Shown: one piece after another, positions 1-6,947 of the stretch
How the letters are laid out: every line of letters begins with the position of its first letter
How positions within the stretch are numbered: the first letter of the stretch is position 1
NCBI GenBank assembly: GCA_013403045.1
Contig: GCA_013403045.1_3037.1
Source: Escherichia coli O157:H7
Lineage (GTDB): Bacteria > Pseudomonadota > Gammaproteobacteria > Enterobacterales > Enterobacteriaceae
Reading direction: 5' to 3' (one strand)
DNA length: 64,000 bases
The notes under the pieces: model-generated
Told to the model about the DNA's origin: nothing
Seen by the model: only the letters and a program-made list of their open reading frames with translations
Databases searched by the model: none
Translations under genes and position numbers: made by a program

Positions 1-666
1 TTTAAAAATGGTGATCGATTGCCAAAAGGTATTACTTTATATCGTTCACAGCGAATGTTACCTTCAATATATGAAGCATTGGTAAAAAATCGAGTTTTTT
101 ATTTTAGAAATTTTGTATCAACATCATTATATCCAAACATTTTTGGTACTTGGATGACTGATTCAGCTGTTGGTGTTTTACCAGATGAAAAGCGTCTAAA
201 CATTTCTATCGATAAAAATGATGAAGGGCTTGTTAATTCTAGCGATAATTTAGTCGGAATTGGATGGGTTATTACTGGGGCTGATAAAGTCAATGTTGTT
301 TTACCCGGTGGAAGTTTAGCGCCTTCAAATGAAATGGAAGTTATTTTGCCACGTGGATTAATGGTCAAAGTTAATAAAATAACTGATGCATCTTACAATG
401 ATGGAACAGTTAAAACTAACAACAAGCTTATTCAAGCTGAAGTTATGACCACGGAAGAGCTCACCGAATCGGTAATCTATGACGGAGACCATTTAATGGA
501 AACTGGTGAATTGGTTGCAATGACAGGTGATATTGAAGTAGAAGACAGAGTTGACTTTGCATCATTTGTTTCATCAAACGTTAAACAGAAAGTAGAATCA
601 TCTCTTGGAATTATTGCGTCTTGCATAGATATTACAAACATGCCTTACAAGTTCGTTCAAGGATAA
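1..666 (+). CDS. Alt-like ADP-ribosyltransferase paralog, C-terminal part (5' end lies upstream of window)
   Basis: Frame is open from nt 1. Translation aligns with the C-terminal region of the downstream Alt (YR[SG]Q, FYF[RK]NFVSTSL, EVILPRG, DGDHLMETGE). Confidence 0.7.
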   Translation, partial: FKNGDRLPKGITLYRSQRMLPSIYEALVKNRVFYFRNFVSTSLYPNIFGTWMTDSAVGVLPDEKRLNISIDKNDEGLVNSSDNLVGIGWVITGADKVNVVLPGGSLAPSNEMEVILPRGLMVKVNKITDASYNDGTVKTNNKLIQAEVMTTEELTESVIYDGDHLMETGELVAMTGDIEVEDRVDFASFVSSNVKQKVESSLGIIASCIDITNMPYKFVQG

Positions 667-669
667 ATC

Positions 670-2727
670 ATGGAACTTATTACAGAATTATTTGACGGCG
701 CTTCGGCGCCGGTTGTTAACTTAAATCCTAAGCATAAAATACCACAAATTTTTGCTATCCAAGCCGGCGAAGAAAGCGTGCTTCCTGGATTTAGATTTTG
801 TACATACACCTCTGGTGGTGATACAAATAAAAATGTTAAGCCAGGCGATAAAATGATGCATATCGTAATGATAGGTGTCAACGAGAAATTATCGCTGGTT
901 AAGCTTAGAAACTTGGGTGGAAATCCAATTGGCGTCATTAATGCCGTTTTTGATACTGCTCTTCAAACAATGAAACAGTATAAAATTGACGCATGCCTAT
1001 TCCGCGTACTAAAAAGTAAAACAAATGGCGCTGCTCGTCAAATGCAAGTTATTGCTGACCGTTTAGTACGTACTAAAGGAGCAGGTCGATATGTTCTTTT
1101 AAAGGAAATCTGGGATTATGATAAAAAGTATGCATATATTATGGTTTACCGTAAAAATGCCAATTTAGAAGACATTCCAGGTGTACCTCCTATTTCAACT
1201 GAGTTATTCACAAAAGTTGAATCAAAGGTTGGTGATGTTTATGTAGACGTTAAAACAGGTAATGCTGTTCCTAAAGCTGTCGCTGTTGCTGCTTCTATTG
1301 CTTTAGAAAATGATAAGCGCACGGACCAAGCTGTTATTCAGAAAACTAAAATTAGTCGTCGATTAGCAGCACAAGCTCAATATTCTACTGTTGATGCTTC
1401 ACTTCAGGGTGATAGCTTCGCTGCTAAGAAATATCAAGAGTTTGAATCTAAAGTTCCGGTATATAAAGCAGAAGGACCAATGAACTCTGGCGTTATTCAG
1501 ATTGGTTCAAACTTCAGCAAAGGAGCTATCGGTGGTATGAGGAGTGCTTCTCGTTTTAAATCTAGCGATTATGAACTAGAAAGTTTCCGAAATCATATTG
1601 CATTAGCCCATGCGCGTTTACGCGATCCATCTATCAAGTTGCAGAGCGATACATCATATCAAGGTTCCCAGGAATATTTAAAGAATAAAGACTTCTTTAA
1701 TTACAAAACTGATAAAATTTTAAGCGATCTTGCTGATATTAATATTTCTAATAGTTTTGATGTTATTAAGAAAATTATCAATGATTTAGTTAAAGGTTCT
1801 AAAGCTACACCAGATGAAAAGACAGCTATTATTCAATTTGTAATGAATGGAATTTATAAATTAATTGATGAATCCGCTGCTCAGGCGTATGAATATGCAA
1901 GCACTGAAGTAACTCCAAAAGGATTGACTCAGGCTGAGTCTGATGTAATTGAAGATTATTGCGCAGATTCGTATGTTGAAATGAACTCATTCCTTTTAGG
2001 TAAACCTGATTCTACACGTGAAGAATATATGGAACGAGCTATTAAACATATTGAGACGCTGGATTCTGCATTCGCTAAAGGTTCAGTTCTTCCTCCAGGA
2101 ACTACACTTTACCGTGGACAAGAAGTTACTTTTAAAACTTTGCGTCATAACATTGAAAATAAAATGTTCTATTTCAAGAACTTCGTATCGACATCACTTA
2201 AACCAAATATCTTTGGTGAGTATGGTAAAAATTATATGGCCTTAGATAATTCCGGAGCAGTATTTTCTGGTGAAGGAGAAGGTTCCGTTGATGCAGAAGA
2301 TTTGATGCATATGGGTAGTCATTCTACATATGCTAATGAAGATGCTGAAACTAGCGTGGGTATGGTAATTAAAGGAGCTGAACGAGTTAAAGTTATCGTT
2401 CCAGGTCATTTATCAGGATTTCCATCAGAAGCTGAAGTTATTCTACCACGTGGAATTTTACTGAAGATTAATAAAGTAAGTACTTACTTTATGAAAGAAA
2501 CTGCTTATAACAAGTATCTAATCGAAGGTACAATCGTTCCTCCTTCTGAACAATTAGAAGAATCAGTATATGATGGCGACCATCTAATGGAAACTGGTGA
2601 AGTTCGTCCAATGGCTGGATTTAATCAATTCCTTGTAGAAGAATCAAAAGAAGAGGAAAACGAAGTTTCTCAAATCTTAGCTTCTTTGGTTAACATCAAC
2701 GGAATGTCTAAAAAGTTCAAAATGTAG
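670..2727 (+). CDS. alt: Alt, packaged RNA polymerase ADP-ribosyltransferase
   Basis: 685 aa, close to T4 Alt length as recalled. N-terminus MELITE resembles a gp21 cleavage site. R / STS / ExE-type ART motifs in the C-terminal domain. AAGGA ribosome-binding site upstream. Confidence 0.9.
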   Translation: MELITELFDGASAPVVNLNPKHKIPQIFAIQAGEESVLPGFRFCTYTSGGDTNKNVKPGDKMMHIVMIGVNEKLSLVKLRNLGGNPIGVINAVFDTALQTMKQYKIDACLFRVLKSKTNGAARQMQVIADRLVRTKGAGRYVLLKEIWDYDKKYAYIMVYRKNANLEDIPGVPPISTELFTKVESKVGDVYVDVKTGNAVPKAVAVAASIALENDKRTDQAVIQKTKISRRLAAQAQYSTVDASLQGDSFAAKKYQEFESKVPVYKAEGPMNSGVIQIGSNFSKGAIGGMRSASRFKSSDYELESFRNHIALAHARLRDPSIKLQSDTSYQGSQEYLKNKDFFNYKTDKILSDLADINISNSFDVIKKIINDLVKGSKATPDEKTAIIQFVMNGIYKLIDESAAQAYEYASTEVTPKGLTQAESDVIEDYCADSYVEMNSFLLGKPDSTREEYMERAIKHIETLDSAFAKGSVLPPGTTLYRGQEVTFKTLRHNIENKMFYFKNFVSTSLKPNIFGEYGKNYMALDNSGAVFSGEGEGSVDAEDLMHMGSHSTYANEDAETSVGMVIKGAERVKVIVPGHLSGFPSEAEVILPRGILLKINKVSTYFMKETAYNKYLIEGTIVPPSEQLEESVYDGDHLMETGEVRPMAGFNQFLVEESKEEENEVSQILASLVNINGMSKKFKM

Positions 2728-2756
2728 TTTACAAGTCCCTCGTGTTGTGTTATAGT
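2727..2756 (+). promoter_or_regulatory. early (sigma70-type) promoter: GTTTACA, 17-nt spacer, TATAGT
   Basis: Motif read directly from sequence upstream of ORF 2788. Confidence 0.55.
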
Positions 2757-2787: not shown

Positions 2788-3078
2788 ATGAAATCTTCTT
2801 TGCGCTTTTTAGGTCAAGAACTCGTCGTTGAAGGCGTTATTCCCGCTGATAACGCTTTCAATGAAGCAGTTTACGGTGAATTTATCAAAATTTTTGGAAC
2901 AGATAAAAAGTTCGGAATTTTTCCTTCTGAAAATTTTTCAAAGCCAGAACAGACTGAAAGTATTTTCCAAGGTGTAGTAACAGGTAAATTTGAGTCAGAA
3001 GCTCCGGTAAAAATTGAGGTTTATATTGAAGAAACCTCTGTTGCTTCAGTTTCTGCTTTTATTTCATTCCGTAAATAA
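2788..3078 (+). CDS. hypothetical early protein
   Basis: 96-aa ORF preceded by an early-type promoter and GAGGAA ribosome-binding site. Confidence 0.55.
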   Translation: MKSSLRFLGQELVVEGVIPADNAFNEAVYGEFIKIFGTDKKFGIFPSENFSKPEQTESIFQGVVTGKFESEAPVKIEVYIEETSVASVSAFISFRK

Positions 3079-3084
3079 AAATAT

Positions 3085-3102
3085 GGGGACCGAAAGGTCC
3101 CC
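3085..3102. terminator. bidirectional hairpin terminator (GGGGACC-GAAA-GGTCCCC) between convergent ORF 2788 and gene 54
   Basis: Perfect 7-bp GC-rich stem with GAAA loop, flanked by T-rich runs on both strands. Confidence 0.65.
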
Positions 3103-3106
3103 ATTG

Positions 3107-4072
3107 TTATATTGCTCCTAATATTTTACTTTGCGAATTGACAATTCCTGTCATAGTATTAATATTTGAAATGCTTCCTGCAGTTCCCCCTAATCTACTA
3201 AGTCGTGAAAGCGAATTAGATAGTCCAGTAACACCTCCACTATTTCCGAGAACGCTTTGAATACCATTTATAGTAGCAGATTCAAGCCATTCAAGGGCAG
3301 CTTGTCTATCAACTGCTCCAGCCTGCATGACTCTATAAGCGAAAGTAACATCAAATGTAGTTATTTGGTTATCTCCATCATATGATAACTCAGGAGCACT
3401 CACAGATATTGGAATACAGCCAGTGAACATCACCGCAGTATGTGGTAATCCATTGCGAGAATGAAGATTGACCTGAATATCTGCCTCGACATCTTGCGGT
3501 AAAGCACGCAATCCAGTTACTGGGTCTTGAACAGCGTTAACCCAGTCTTGCATTGCACGATAGTTACAAGCTTCTGAATCCATTCTAAATGAAATAACCA
3601 AAGGGTCTAATTCTCTTCCAGTTATACGAATATTAGGAGAATTATAGTTCCAGTCAGTTTCATAGGATAATCTATTCTCTGGCATTTTTACAGAATATAT
3701 CATCAATCCAGATGAGTTATATGCCATGTTAAAGAAGTCAATTAAATATGTACCAACTGTAAATGAGCCTAATAAACTTTGAACTGTACGTTGACTCATG
3801 GCACCAATAAGATATTTACTAACCCCTGATTTTCTTATCAGTTTTTGTGTGCCAGCGGTAATTAGCGTAGTAATTCCCTGATTAATATCACCTTGAGTTA
3901 ATCCCAACCAATCTGAATTTAGACCCAAGTTATTATAAGCAAAGTTACTAATTGAGCTTATTAACGATGAGCTTTTAGTTGATGGAGTTGTAGCAAAAAC
4001 ACAGCTGAACATATTATTACGTTGGAAGTCTGCGTTTATTGCTTGATTATTAAATTCCTCTAAAGAATACAT
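3107..4072 (-). CDS. 54: baseplate tail tube initiator gp54
   Basis: 321 aa; position between alt and 48; length matches T4 gp54 as recalled. Confidence 0.9.
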   Translation of the reverse strand: MYSLEEFNNQAINADFQRNNMFSCVFATTPSTKSSSLISSISNFAYNNLGLNSDWLGLTQGDINQGITTLITAGTQKLIRKSGVSKYLIGAMSQRTVQSLLGSFTVGTYLIDFFNMAYNSSGLMIYSVKMPENRLSYETDWNYNSPNIRITGRELDPLVISFRMDSEACNYRAMQDWVNAVQDPVTGLRALPQDVEADIQVNLHSRNGLPHTAVMFTGCIPISVSAPELSYDGDNQITTFDVTFAYRVMQAGAVDRQAALEWLESATINGIQSVLGNSGGVTGLSNSLSRLSRLGGTAGSISNINTMTGIVNSQSKILGAI

Positions 4073-5166
4073 TAGAAAGTCCCCGTATATAAAGAAGCAC
4101 GGTTTAACGTAATAATCTCTCTCATAGTAATCTCGAGTGTAAAAGAACTTGGAAGGTTAGGAGCAATAGCTAATCCATTAAAGTTACCATTTGGTGTTTT
4201 ATCAAATCTAATACTCTGTATTTGGCATGGACCGAATACTTCAGTCTTTCCATCAAATTTAGAAGTTGCACCAAAGTTTTTCACCATCCAAATTGTCGGG
4301 TTTGAAACTACAAGAACGTTCGTTAAACTCGATGTCATTTTTTCAAATAACGTCTTGTTTTTAATCGCGTCTTCTGGCGTTAATGGTTCAATAAATGTAG
4401 AACGATACCACTCATCTAAATATCCTTTTATTTCAGCAGCATATTGAGATTTACCAGTTTCACCGTAAGAAAAATAGTTAAAATACTGATAGATATTAAT
4501 AATAGCCATTAAATCTTCTGTTGAGCGCGGAGTCAAATCCCAGGTGAACACTTTTGTTCTATTTTCAGCACCGCCATACATACTTCTAGCTGTTGTATAG
4601 ATCTGTTCATTATTATCAGCCATTATTCCTTGTGTTATACTTTCAAGCGCACCAAATACTGCAGTTGAAGCCATATTACTTAGCACACCAGTAGCAGTAC
4701 CTCCGCCTTTTGTAATAAGACTATCTTGAACATCATTAAATCTATGTGATGACGTATCGACGTCAGATTTAGATCTAGGTAAAAGAATATTTGCAACAGG
4801 AACTTTACTTATTGTTCCTGAATTATTATCTGATATTAGTCCATTTGATAGTTTTGATACTGTATTACTGATAGTGTTTCTGGCTGTACGTAAAATACTC
4901 GAAGATGAAGAAGAGTAGTTAGATCTCATCGTTCTAAGACTTCCAGAATCCCTAGATGACATATTGTATGCAGTAAATAATAATCCATTCTTATATAGAT
5001 CTGTTACCTGGAAGTCCCCTGTAGTGTCATTACCACTAGCACGCCCAGTTGGAAACTGGGCTGTGTATGTTTTAGTTCCTACTTCTGATTTAGTACTCTG
5101 TCCGGCTGAAATTGTTTCACCGGACTTTTTAATTAAATCAGCAGTTATTTCTTTAACAATTGCCAT
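4072..5166 (-). CDS. 48: baseplate tail tube cap gp48
   Basis: 364 aa; synteny and length match T4 gp48. Confidence 0.9.
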   Translation of the reverse strand: MAIVKEITADLIKKSGETISAGQSTKSEVGTKTYTAQFPTGRASGNDTTGDFQVTDLYKNGLLFTAYNMSSRDSGSLRTMRSNYSSSSSSILRTARNTISNTVSKLSNGLISDNNSGTISKVPVANILLPRSKSDVDTSSHRFNDVQDSLITKGGGTATGVLSNMASTAVFGALESITQGIMADNNEQIYTTARSMYGGAENRTKVFTWDLTPRSTEDLMAIINIYQYFNYFSYGETGKSQYAAEIKGYLDEWYRSTFIEPLTPEDAIKNKTLFEKMTSSLTNVLVVSNPTIWMVKNFGATSKFDGKTEVFGPCQIQSIRFDKTPNGNFNGLAIAPNLPSSFTLEITMREIITLNRASLYTGTF

Positions 5167-5174
5167 ATTATTCC

Positions 5175-6947
5175 TTAATTAACTCCCGTCGCACCAAATA
5201 CACCAGGAGCAGTTGTGCTTGTGACAGGTGTCATATTATGAACGACAGTATTTTTCTTAATAACATTATTAGTATTATTGATTGAAGGAGATGCTTGTTG
5301 AACAGGAGCTTGTTGTGCTTTGTTCTTTTCAATCACCTGGACCTGTTTTGCTTCTGGTGATTTAGCAGAAGTTTCAGGTTTTGCTTCAGGTTGATTTTTC
5401 TTGAGCTCTTGATAAGTGGCATCAATTTTAGCAAATCTAGAAGCAAGTTCTTTTTTAACTGCTGGTGAATTATTTAAATCCGGATCATTCATTCGTTTTT
5501 TAAGGTCTTCATGAGCAGCTTCAATTGATTTAACTGTCGAGTCTTTGCTCATATCAGCTGAATCAGCGTATTTTTCAAAACGAATCATCGCAGCACGAGC
5601 TTCATTAGCTTTCATTAAAGCATTTTTTCTTTCTTCCGGTGAAAGTTGTTTTAATTTTTCTTCTTCTGCTGCACGTTCTTCGTCAGTAGTCAATGCTTCT
5701 TTATTATCTACACCACGAATCCAGTTAGATGCACGAGTTTTCCAGTTCGCAATTTTGTCTAATCCTTTTGCTATTGGGCCAAGATCATCATTCATTCGTT
5801 TATCTTGATAATTTGCTACTTTTTCTTGGTCTTCTTTATTAAGAGATGCTCCAGTAGAATTTTGGAAATTTTCTAATGCTCTTCCTTCTACTTCATCAGC
5901 AGTATCCTTCATGCCAGGAATGACTCGAAGAATTGCTGCAGATAATTTAGCCATACCTAATTGAATAAGCTCTCCTAAATTATAAAGAACACTTCCAAGC
6001 CCTTCAACAATAGCTACTGTTAATCCGCCCCAATCTCCAGCTTCCCAGAACTTTTTAATTTCATCAATAGAATCAAAGATGCTCTGTAATAAAGGACCCC
6101 ATGTTCCGGTTTCGCTAGAGAATTTAGTAAAATCAGTGCTAAATAAATCCCAGGCTTTTGAAAATTTATCTGACCAGTATTTAAAATGAACCATCAGCAG
6201 GTCTATTCCAATAACAACAGCCATTATCAATGCAACCATTTTAGCAGCTTCAATAGCAGCACTGACGGTATACTTAAATAGCATACTAGATATTTTATCA
6301 GTAATTGAAATAGATTTCTTAAATCCGAAATCAACTGTCTTTGTTAATTTATCTAAAGCTTGAGATAATTTTAAGTTAAATGCGTCTCTTTTTTGCTTCT
6401 CTTCTGGAGACTCTTGTTTTGGTTCAATTGGCTGAGGAGTAGGGAAAAAATCAGCATCAGGATCATTATTAACTGCTTCAGGAGCCGGTAATAAAGGACC
6501 CACAGATTCAGCTGTATCATCCTCGACGACTTTAACAGGAATAGCATTTTCGACTACTGCTAAACTCGTTCCAGTTTGCTGAATTCCAGCTGTCTGAATT
6601 TTTTGTTCCAGTAAACTTGTTAATTTATCTAATTTGCTTCCGAGCGATTCACCGATTTCTTTATTAATATTGTTTCCAATTTCAACAGTTTCAGCAATTA
6701 ACTCAGAACCGGCAGTAGTATCACTTACTGCGCTTTCAACGTTATCAATTGCTCCAACTATTTCATTTGATTTTTCTTCAACAGTCTGAGCTATTAATTC
6801 AGAAGCAGCTTGAGCATCATCTAATTTTGTAGAAATGTCATTAAGACCAGATAAAGTATTAGAAGCGGATTTAGCCGCTTCCTGTGTTGGTTTATTATCT
6901 GAAATAACTTTTCTACGCATCGTTTGCATTTCTTGTGGCTTTTTCAT
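5175..6947 (-). CDS. 29: tail tape measure / baseplate hub protein gp29
   Basis: 590 aa; synteny and length match T4 gp29. Confidence 0.9.
   Translation of the reverse strand: MKKPQEMQTMRRKVISDNKPTQEAAKSASNTLSGLNDISTKLDDAQAASELIAQTVEEKSNEIVGAIDNVESAVSDTTAGSELIAETVEIGNNINKEIGESLGSKLDKLTSLLEQKIQTAGIQQTGTSLAVVENAIPVKVVEDDTAESVGPLLPAPEAVNNDPDADFFPTPQPIEPKQESPEEKQKRDAFNLKLSQALDKLTKTVDFGFKKSISITDKISSMLFKYTVSAAIEAAKMVALIMAVVIGIDLLMVHFKYWSDKFSKAWDLFSTDFTKFSSETGTWGPLLQSIFDSIDEIKKFWEAGDWGGLTVAIVEGLGSVLYNLGELIQLGMAKLSAAILRVIPGMKDTADEVEGRALENFQNSTGASLNKEDQEKVANYQDKRMNDDLGPIAKGLDKIANWKTRASNWIRGVDNKEALTTDEERAAEEEKLKQLSPEERKNALMKANEARAAMIRFEKYADSADMSKDSTVKSIEAAHEDLKKRMNDPDLNNSPAVKKELASRFAKIDATYQELKKNQPEAKPETSAKSPEAKQVQVIEKNKAQQAPVQQASPSINNTNNVIKKNTVVHNMTPVTSTTAPGVFGATGVN

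Follow-up and report, generated by a model that had tools for sequence, protein, structure and literature searches.

Why would a T-even bacteriophage carry two genes for Alt-type ADP-ribosyltransferases (ARTs) in tandem, and do both enzymes travel to the host in the phage head? This question is raised by the start of the 64,000-nucleotide stretch of DNA analyzed here (the window), which is filed as contig GCA_013403045.1_3037.1 of an Escherichia coli O157:H7 assembly. Over its first 3,100 bases the window matches the reverse strand of Escherichia phage AR1 (NC_027983.1 / AP011113.1) with 100% identity; AR1 is a T4-like Tequatrovirus whose genome has already been published. No stop codon interrupts frame 1 between base 1 and the one at 664-666 (221 codons), and a second open reading frame (ORF) of 685 amino acids occupies 670-2727. 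An earlier reading of the same letters, hereafter the original prediction, proposed that these ORFs are tandem Alt-like ART genes, that their products share C-terminal motifs but diverge between them, and that both are packaged enzymes with different targets.

The explanation we favor, with a probability of about 0.7, is that the two products, here called Alt (gene altA) and Alt2 (gene alt2), form a pair of packaged and injected effectors that act on different host proteins or defense factors. The two genes would be transcribed together from a late promoter located 5' of altA. Each protein would enter the prohead core by means of a shared N-terminal domain and terminal propeptides, and the gp21 prohead protease would trim it after E6 and again after the L-x-E sequence that precedes the motif SV(I)YDGDHLMETGE. 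Each would then be injected with the DNA and ADP-ribosylate host proteins, and a divergent helical middle region together with the ART core would make up a swappable effector cassette on which the choice of target depends.

Completion of the first ORF in the source record yields an intact gene of 685 amino acids (AR1_202, L001:4609-6666, where L001 denotes AR1 record numbering). This gene carries its catalytic residues and is not a pseudogene remnant, which were the two ways in which the original prediction might have failed at this point. Over its full length altA is 97% identical to T4 Alt (gpAlt, NP_049811), the head-packaged, injected, arginine-specific mono-ADP-ribosyltransferase, whereas alt2 is only 46% identical to altA. 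The label "full-length alt" given earlier to 670-2727 was therefore swapped: the truncated ORF is the 3' end of the gene truly orthologous to T4 alt, and 670-2727 is a second paralogue, Alt2. The family phrog_802 spans residues 1-685 of Alt2 (E 8.5e-256) and also matches altA over its full length. BASEL GenBank records (Bas36/43/44) name the pair "ADP-ribosyltransferase Alt" and "ADP-ribosyltransferase Alt2", with locus numbers _0033 for Alt and _0032 for Alt2 in Bas43 and Bas44, and _0032 and _0031, respectively, in Bas36. RefSeq uses "Alt-like RNA polymerase ADP-ribosyltransferase" for both genes. The pair lies between gene 30/alt.1 and alt.-3/gene 54, as does alt in T4. The region is the T-even alt locus in its common two-gene state, in which both genes are intact members of the Alt family of R-S-E mono-ADP-ribosyltransferases and alt2 is an old paralogue. 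A tandem pair of this kind is already known, as it is annotated in hundreds of related phage records and is noted in the T4 record and by Nolan et al. 2006.

The proposal that both ORFs encode ARTs is borne out. BLASTP aligns the altA fragment to residues 468-683 of Alt2 with 82 identities in 229 positions (36%, E 2e-38), a similarity far beyond chance, and PF03496 (ADPrib_exo_Tox) matches the fragment with 63 bits and Alt2 with 71.7 bits against a gathering cut-off of 23.4. All four C-terminal motifs quoted in the original prediction are present at the expected places in both ORFs, except that the string AEVILPRG holds exactly only for the second gene (EAEVILPRG), the first reading MEVILPRG. 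The catalytic residues are LYR479, S504-T-S506 and E575-M-E577 in AltA and LYR482, S507-T-S509 and E587-A-E589 in Alt2. In a family alignment, the R, S-T-S and E-x-E positions are invariant among 22 diverse homologues. When aligned by MAFFT with ModA and ModB of T4, the ExE motif of Alt falls in register with theirs, but their R and STS motifs were not brought into line with those of Alt.

Replacement of the corresponding glutamate in T4 Alt (E577A) gives a catalytically dead enzyme (PMC11404850). In T4 RefSeq numbering the ExE glutamates are residues 574 and 576; the AR1 annotation, in which the protein starts with a double methionine, makes them 575 and 577. The published E577 agrees with the AR1 count and differs by one from that of T4 RefSeq, and this mismatch is probably a matter of numbering or of start-codon choice. 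Since E-x-E is typical of arginine-specific enzymes, Alt2 would be expected to modify arginine as well. In the literature, arginine ADP-ribosylation dependent on nicotinamide adenine dinucleotide has been shown for T4 Alt only, and ADP-ribosylation of the RNA polymerase alpha subunit has likewise been reported for T4 Alt only.

The resemblance between the two paralogues is distributed very unevenly along their length. Between AR1 AltA and Alt2, identity is 67% in the N-terminal residues 1-235, about 15% in the middle (~236-425), 37% in the ART core (426-630) and 42% in the C-terminal tail, so the divergence between shared motifs described in the original prediction is genuine and stronger than it had stated. 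An AlphaFold2 model of Alt2, with a predicted local distance difference test (pLDDT) score of 75, comprises an alpha/beta N-terminal domain (1-~225), an all-helical region (~230-470), an ART domain (~475-625) and a disordered tail (630-685). A sequence search of Alt2 against PDB chains gave no match, and an NCBIfam scan of three Alt types matched no family. A Foldseek comparison of the modeled ART domain with PDB structures recovered Vis, C3bot, CDTa, iota and VIP2 with a probability of 1.0 and E values down to 4e-7. The template modeling (TM) score, normalized to the target, is about 0.6 for single-domain members. The model therefore matches an ART fold in the C-terminal part of Alt2, and its fold and catalytic motifs appear to be those of C3-like and binary-toxin ARTs that belong to PF03496 (Vis, C3bot, CDTa, iota Ia, VIP2). 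However, the N-terminal adaptor domain with a degenerate ART fold that marks the enzymatic components of binary toxins (VIP2, iota Ia, CDTa) is not seen in Alt2.

The conserved N-terminal domain is proposed to be the head-core or packaging module. In precomputed annotations (P0001-P0120), a second Pfam family, PF26846, is found on all full-length Alt homologues and presumably corresponds to this domain. By sequence, the domain is found in only 69 clusters (50% identity) among 1.84 billion proteins. A profile of the domain gave no match to PDB even at E <= 10, and at the same threshold Pfam returned only noise for the N-terminal and middle regions, apart from the start of PF03496. We considered whether sequence searches would reveal fusions of the domain with other effectors, and this idea was rejected: the full-length matches listed are 598-712 amino acids long, and six of the nine scanned, including most of those with odd lengths, carry PF03496, the other three having no Pfam match. 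Foldseek against predicted viral structures gave remote matches (TM 0.4-0.55) in longer proteins of Ackermannviridae-like, Vibrio and Agrobacterium phages, some of them annotated with zeta-toxin, deaminase or ParB-like domains. These structural matches provide a lead that the domain might be a more general head-delivery module.

T4 Alt is a protein of the prohead core that is present in about 40 copies per head, and gp21 cuts it at ITE-6 and at LTE-619, the latter removing 63 C-terminal residues to leave a mature protein of 68.2 kDa (PMC5694885, PMC9026906). Computed cleavage of the T4 sequence at both sites reproduces the published mass. Alt2 begins with the same processing site as T4 Alt, and the alignment sets its L-E-E631 against LTE-619. 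Cleavage at these two sites would leave a mature protein of 69.1 kDa (residues 7-631). Invariant positions among the 22 homologues include E631, Y634, D635, G636, D637, E641, G643 and E644, as well as the glutamates at the P1 position of both sites. Because SV(I)YDGDHLMETGE starts immediately after the gp21 site, it belongs to the C-terminal propeptide and not to the ART core. The original prediction listed this motif with the others of a shared C-terminal region; in T4 Alt the motif falls in the propeptide that gp21 removes. The motif is near-invariant in paralogues that are otherwise 37% identical, so it may help to target the protein to the core, to tether it there or to keep it latent. With the gp21 sites and the N-terminal domain conserved in both proteins, the earlier claim that both are packaged is supported at the level of sequence, and Alt2 would be packaged and injected as T4 Alt is.

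The manner in which the two genes are expressed might be shared as well. The late-promoter consensus TATAAATA occurs at L001:4581-4588, outside the window and 20 nucleotides 5' of altA, where it is the only copy in 15 kb, and a terminator-like hairpin is also located just 5' of altA. The late promoter of T4 alt occupies the same position. Because the genes are separated by three nucleotides and no late-promoter consensus lies between altA and alt2, the two are likely to be co-transcribed late in infection from the altA promoter.

Alt2 is widespread and strongly conserved. The second Alt-like genes of RB32, T2, PP01, Bas36/43/44 and many other phages are the same gene as 670-2727. A total of 456 phage records contain the Alt2-specific middle region; in 402 of these it is at least 90% identical and in about 350 it is 95-99% identical. 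The carriers include T2 as well as Yersinia, Shigella and Serratia phages. The gene is intact in about 400 of some 500 Tequatrovirus records, and Dhakavirus phages have orthologues with about 48% identity. Between AR1 and PP01, alt2 differs by 99 synonymous and 19 non-synonymous changes, giving a ratio of non-synonymous to synonymous rates (dN/dS) of 0.045; alt2 is under strong purifying selection.

T4 itself represents a different state of the locus. The genes alt.-1 and alt.-2 of T4 (NP_049810, NP_049809) occupy the position of Alt2, and their families, phrog_23015 and phrog_15247, match Alt2 (E 2e-40 and 1e-37) better than AltA (E 1e-21 and 2e-19). They are what is left of the first ~117 codons of an Alt2-type gene, which is intact in AR1 but in T4 has lost 1,699 bp and carries a frameshift. 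The first 3.2 kb of the window contain exactly two copies of the 9-bp sequence CTAAAAAGT, and the T4-type junction arose through a deletion between these copies together with the frameshift. Of 500 records, 91 have this junction, among them every T4 isolate, RB55 and RB59. The T4 record carries its own note that alt.-1/alt.-2 go back to an ancient copy of the beginning of alt, interrupted by a stop codon, and alt duplications are listed for T4, RB49 and 44RR by Nolan et al. 2006 (PMC1524935), the only paper recovered by a literature search on alt.-1/alt.-2. We infer that the common two-gene state is ancestral and that the T4 state is degenerate.

The upstream position of the locus (slot A) is also polymorphic. 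At 90% identity or more, the slot-A middle region is of the T4/AR1 type in 175 records and of the PP01 type in 320 records. The AltA proteins of AR1 and PP01 are 99% identical in the N-terminal domain and 92% in the propeptide, but only 37% in the middle and 67% in the ART core. At the DNA level, a block with abrupt edges at approximately L001:5350-6450, equivalent to window positions -650 to +450, has an identity of 46-75%, against 95-100% on either side. The two slot-A alleles thus differ only in a cassette formed by the middle region and the ART core. In its ART half (residues ~400-650), the PP01-type cassette shares 88-98% identity with the first Alt of Dhakavirus IME341, whereas the N-terminal domains of these two proteins are only 28-50% identical and their C-terminal tails 44%. 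This disparity between the ART half and the N-terminal domain suggests that genera have exchanged the effector cassette while each lineage kept packaging modules of its own. Dhakavirus 04086 carries three Alt-like genes in tandem (L006:3267-9818), the first of which represents a further effector type: compared with all others, its identity is about 20% in the middle and 35-48% in the ART core. The last of the three, an Alt2-like gene, appears split or contains an ambiguous base in the record, possibly reflecting sequence quality. Which allele occupies slot A is independent of whether Alt2 is present; HY03, for example, combines a PP01-type Alt with the T4-type deletion.

The best reading of these patterns is that constant packaging modules are combined with swappable effector modules. 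More broadly, and with confidence somewhat short of even, we propose that the Tevenvirinae alt locus might be a polymorphic array of injected effectors. In such an array, a constant N-terminal domain and gp21-cleaved propeptides, including the YDGDHLMETGE box, would frame exchangeable cassettes composed of a helical region and an ART. At least four types of cassette (T4-type, PP01-type, Alt2-type and that of Dhakavirus 04086) were seen, arranged as one to three tandem copies, and they would pass from one genus to another. Each cassette would be directed at a different host protein or defense system, with Alt2 having its own conserved target, and the N-terminal domain would perhaps serve more generally in delivery from the head. 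T-even internal proteins IPI/II/III and bacterial polymorphic toxins follow the same logic, in which constant delivery or packaging parts are joined to exchangeable effectors at a hypervariable locus. However, IPI/II/III use a short capsid targeting sequence (CTS) of ~10 residues, whereas Alt has a conserved domain of 230 amino acids and propeptides at both ends, and there is no sequence relationship between them. No description of the alt locus in terms of cassettes was found in the literature searched, and this view is of some value beyond the known existence of the pair.

Several observations weigh against the favored explanation that Alt and Alt2 are packaged and injected effectors with different targets. 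No direct evidence was found for Alt2 in virions, or for an Alt2 that is cleaved, active or directed at a distinct target: literature searches found no virion proteomics for Alt2 and no paper mentioning Alt2 together with ART and phage, and two papers checked for data on Alt among virion or injected proteins do not mention it. The sequence [LI]xE is common, with 7-8 occurrences per protein, and the conservation of the gp21 sites is therefore judged from the alignment and not from the motif alone. A single copy of the late-promoter consensus in 15 kb is unremarkable when 2.3 are expected, and the searches gave the N-terminal domain fold no clear functional assignment. Finally, T4 and the 91 records lack Alt2, which must therefore be dispensable on laboratory hosts. 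Some of these points would fit an Alt2 that is an active ART but is not packaged, and acts late in the producing cell or is only a structural component of the core. Late expression alone is indeed no proof of encapsidation. We nevertheless consider this unlikely, given that MELITE is shared with T4 Alt, that the N-terminal domain is 67% identical to its counterpart and that the family-invariant L-x-E site and propeptide motif would have no obvious use in an enzyme that is not packaged. ModA and ModB, which are non-packaged T4 enzymes of the same R-S-E ART clade, have none of these features; they are proteins of about 200 amino acids that lack the Alt N-terminal domain, the helical region and the gp21 propeptides, in contrast to the 685-residue multidomain Alt and Alt2. 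Both ModA and ModB are expressed early. The loss of Alt2 by repeat-mediated deletion and frameshift, with no apparent cost on laboratory hosts, and the non-essential nature of T4 alt itself might instead indicate that Alt2 is a redundant duplicate heading to loss, with no role distinct from that of Alt and a tandem arrangement that is a historical accident. We regard this as quite improbable: the low dN/dS was maintained while 99 synonymous changes accumulated, the paralogue-specific middle is as highly conserved as described above, all catalytic and processing residues of Alt2 are intact, and Dhakavirus retains an orthologue at 47-60% identity. An ART core with only 37% identity to that of Alt also lies far beyond what mere redundancy would require.

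If the packaged-effector explanation is right, distinct targets for Alt and Alt2 would be expected. According to the HIDEN-SEQ preprint (10.1101/2025.11.20.689424), T4 escapes Mokosh type I only with its Alt, and Bas37 Alt (bas37_0033), described there as one that "exhibits notable sequence differences", does not substitute for it; the same preprint cites a report that Alt interferes with MazEF. This lack of interchangeability between Alt alleles is the only functional hint on the divergence. By analogy with the numbering of Bas43 and Bas44, bas37_0033 is probably the slot-A gene, and it might, one step further, carry the PP01-type allele. Together with the cassette polymorphism, the exchange between genera and the copy number of one to three, all of which resemble the evolution of anti-defense loci, these findings would fit an array that serves mainly in counter-defense and not in reprogramming of RNA polymerase, each cassette neutralizing a host immunity or toxin system upon injection. 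The neighboring alt.-3 can also mutate to block a defense system, as C-terminal extension mutants of T4 Alt.-3 escape CmdTAC by blocking CmdA degradation (PMC11618068). A mainly counter-defensive role is possible but on balance doubtful, because nothing ties Alt2 itself to any defense system and because Alt2 is highly conserved and not diversifying in Tequatrovirus, for which a housekeeping host target fits equally well. It is also compatible with, and does not exclude, the explanation that we favor.

These results place T4, long the model for injected ADP-ribosyltransferases, in a minority single-Alt state. About four-fifths of sequenced Tequatroviruses carry the second, strongly conserved Alt2, and about two-thirds carry the other effector cassette in the first slot. 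If the Mokosh result of the preprint holds, Alt2 and the cassette alleles are testable candidates for determinants of host range and counter-defense in therapeutic T4-like phages.

Table 1. Features of the altA-alt2 region and its downstream flank, in window positions.
Feature	Position	Strand	Basis or remark
altA 3' end (last 221 codons and stop)	1..666	+	AR1_202; T4 alt orthologue; PF03496, 63 bits
Parts of the altA fragment	R 43-45; STS 118-126; ExE 331-339; gp21 site LTE 460-468; C-terminal propeptide 469-663	+	sequence
TLYR	34-45 (altA); 2104-2115 (alt2)	+	motif
STS	118-126 (altA); 2188-2196 (alt2)	+	motif
E-x-EVILPRG	331-357, EMEVILPRG (altA); 2428-2454, EAEVILPRG (alt2)	+	motif
SV(I)YDGDHLMETGE	469-510 (altA); 2563-2601 (alt2)	+	motif
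3-nt spacer, altA stop to alt2 start	667..669	+	AAGGA Shine-Dalgarno sequence inside the end of altA
alt2 (AR1_201), full-length second Alt-family ART, 685 aa	670..2727	+	ORF, PF03496, phrog_802
Predicted N-terminal propeptide MELITE	670..687	+	identical to T4 Alt ITE-6 gp21 site; E6 invariant in 22 family members
Alt N-terminal alpha/beta domain, residues ~7-235	688..1374	+	67% identical to AltA; model pLDDT 85; proposed head-core/packaging module
Left 9-bp direct repeat CTAAAAAGT	1009..1017	+	left end-point of T4-type deletion
Paralogue-specific all-helical middle, residues ~236-470	1375..2079	+	proposed target-recognition part of effector cassette
Alt2 R-S-E ADP-ribosyltransferase core	2080..2562	+	R482 2113-2115; S507-T-S509 2188-2196; E587-A-E589 2428-2436; ends at predicted gp21 site L629-E-E631
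Predicted C-terminal propeptide, 54 aa, acidic, starts SVYDGDHLMETGE	2563..2724	+	model pLDDT <50 for residues 630-685
Right 9-bp direct repeat CTAAAAAGT	2708..2716	+	right end-point of T4-type 1,699-bp deletion
Sigma-70/T4-early-like promoter (TTTACA, 17-nt spacer, TG-TATAGT)	2728..2756	+	consensus match only; between alt2 and alt.-3
alt.-3 (DUF5498, 96 aa), downstream neighbor, not an ART	2788..3078	+	ORF, family match
Bidirectional terminator-like hairpin	3083..3104	.	between alt.-3 and convergent gene 54

Beyond alt.-3, the convergent late genes 54, 48 and 29, which code for the tail tube initiator, the tube cap and the tape measure protein, are located at 3107-6947 on the minus strand, as in T4. 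The alt genes are the sole rightward late genes in this neighborhood.

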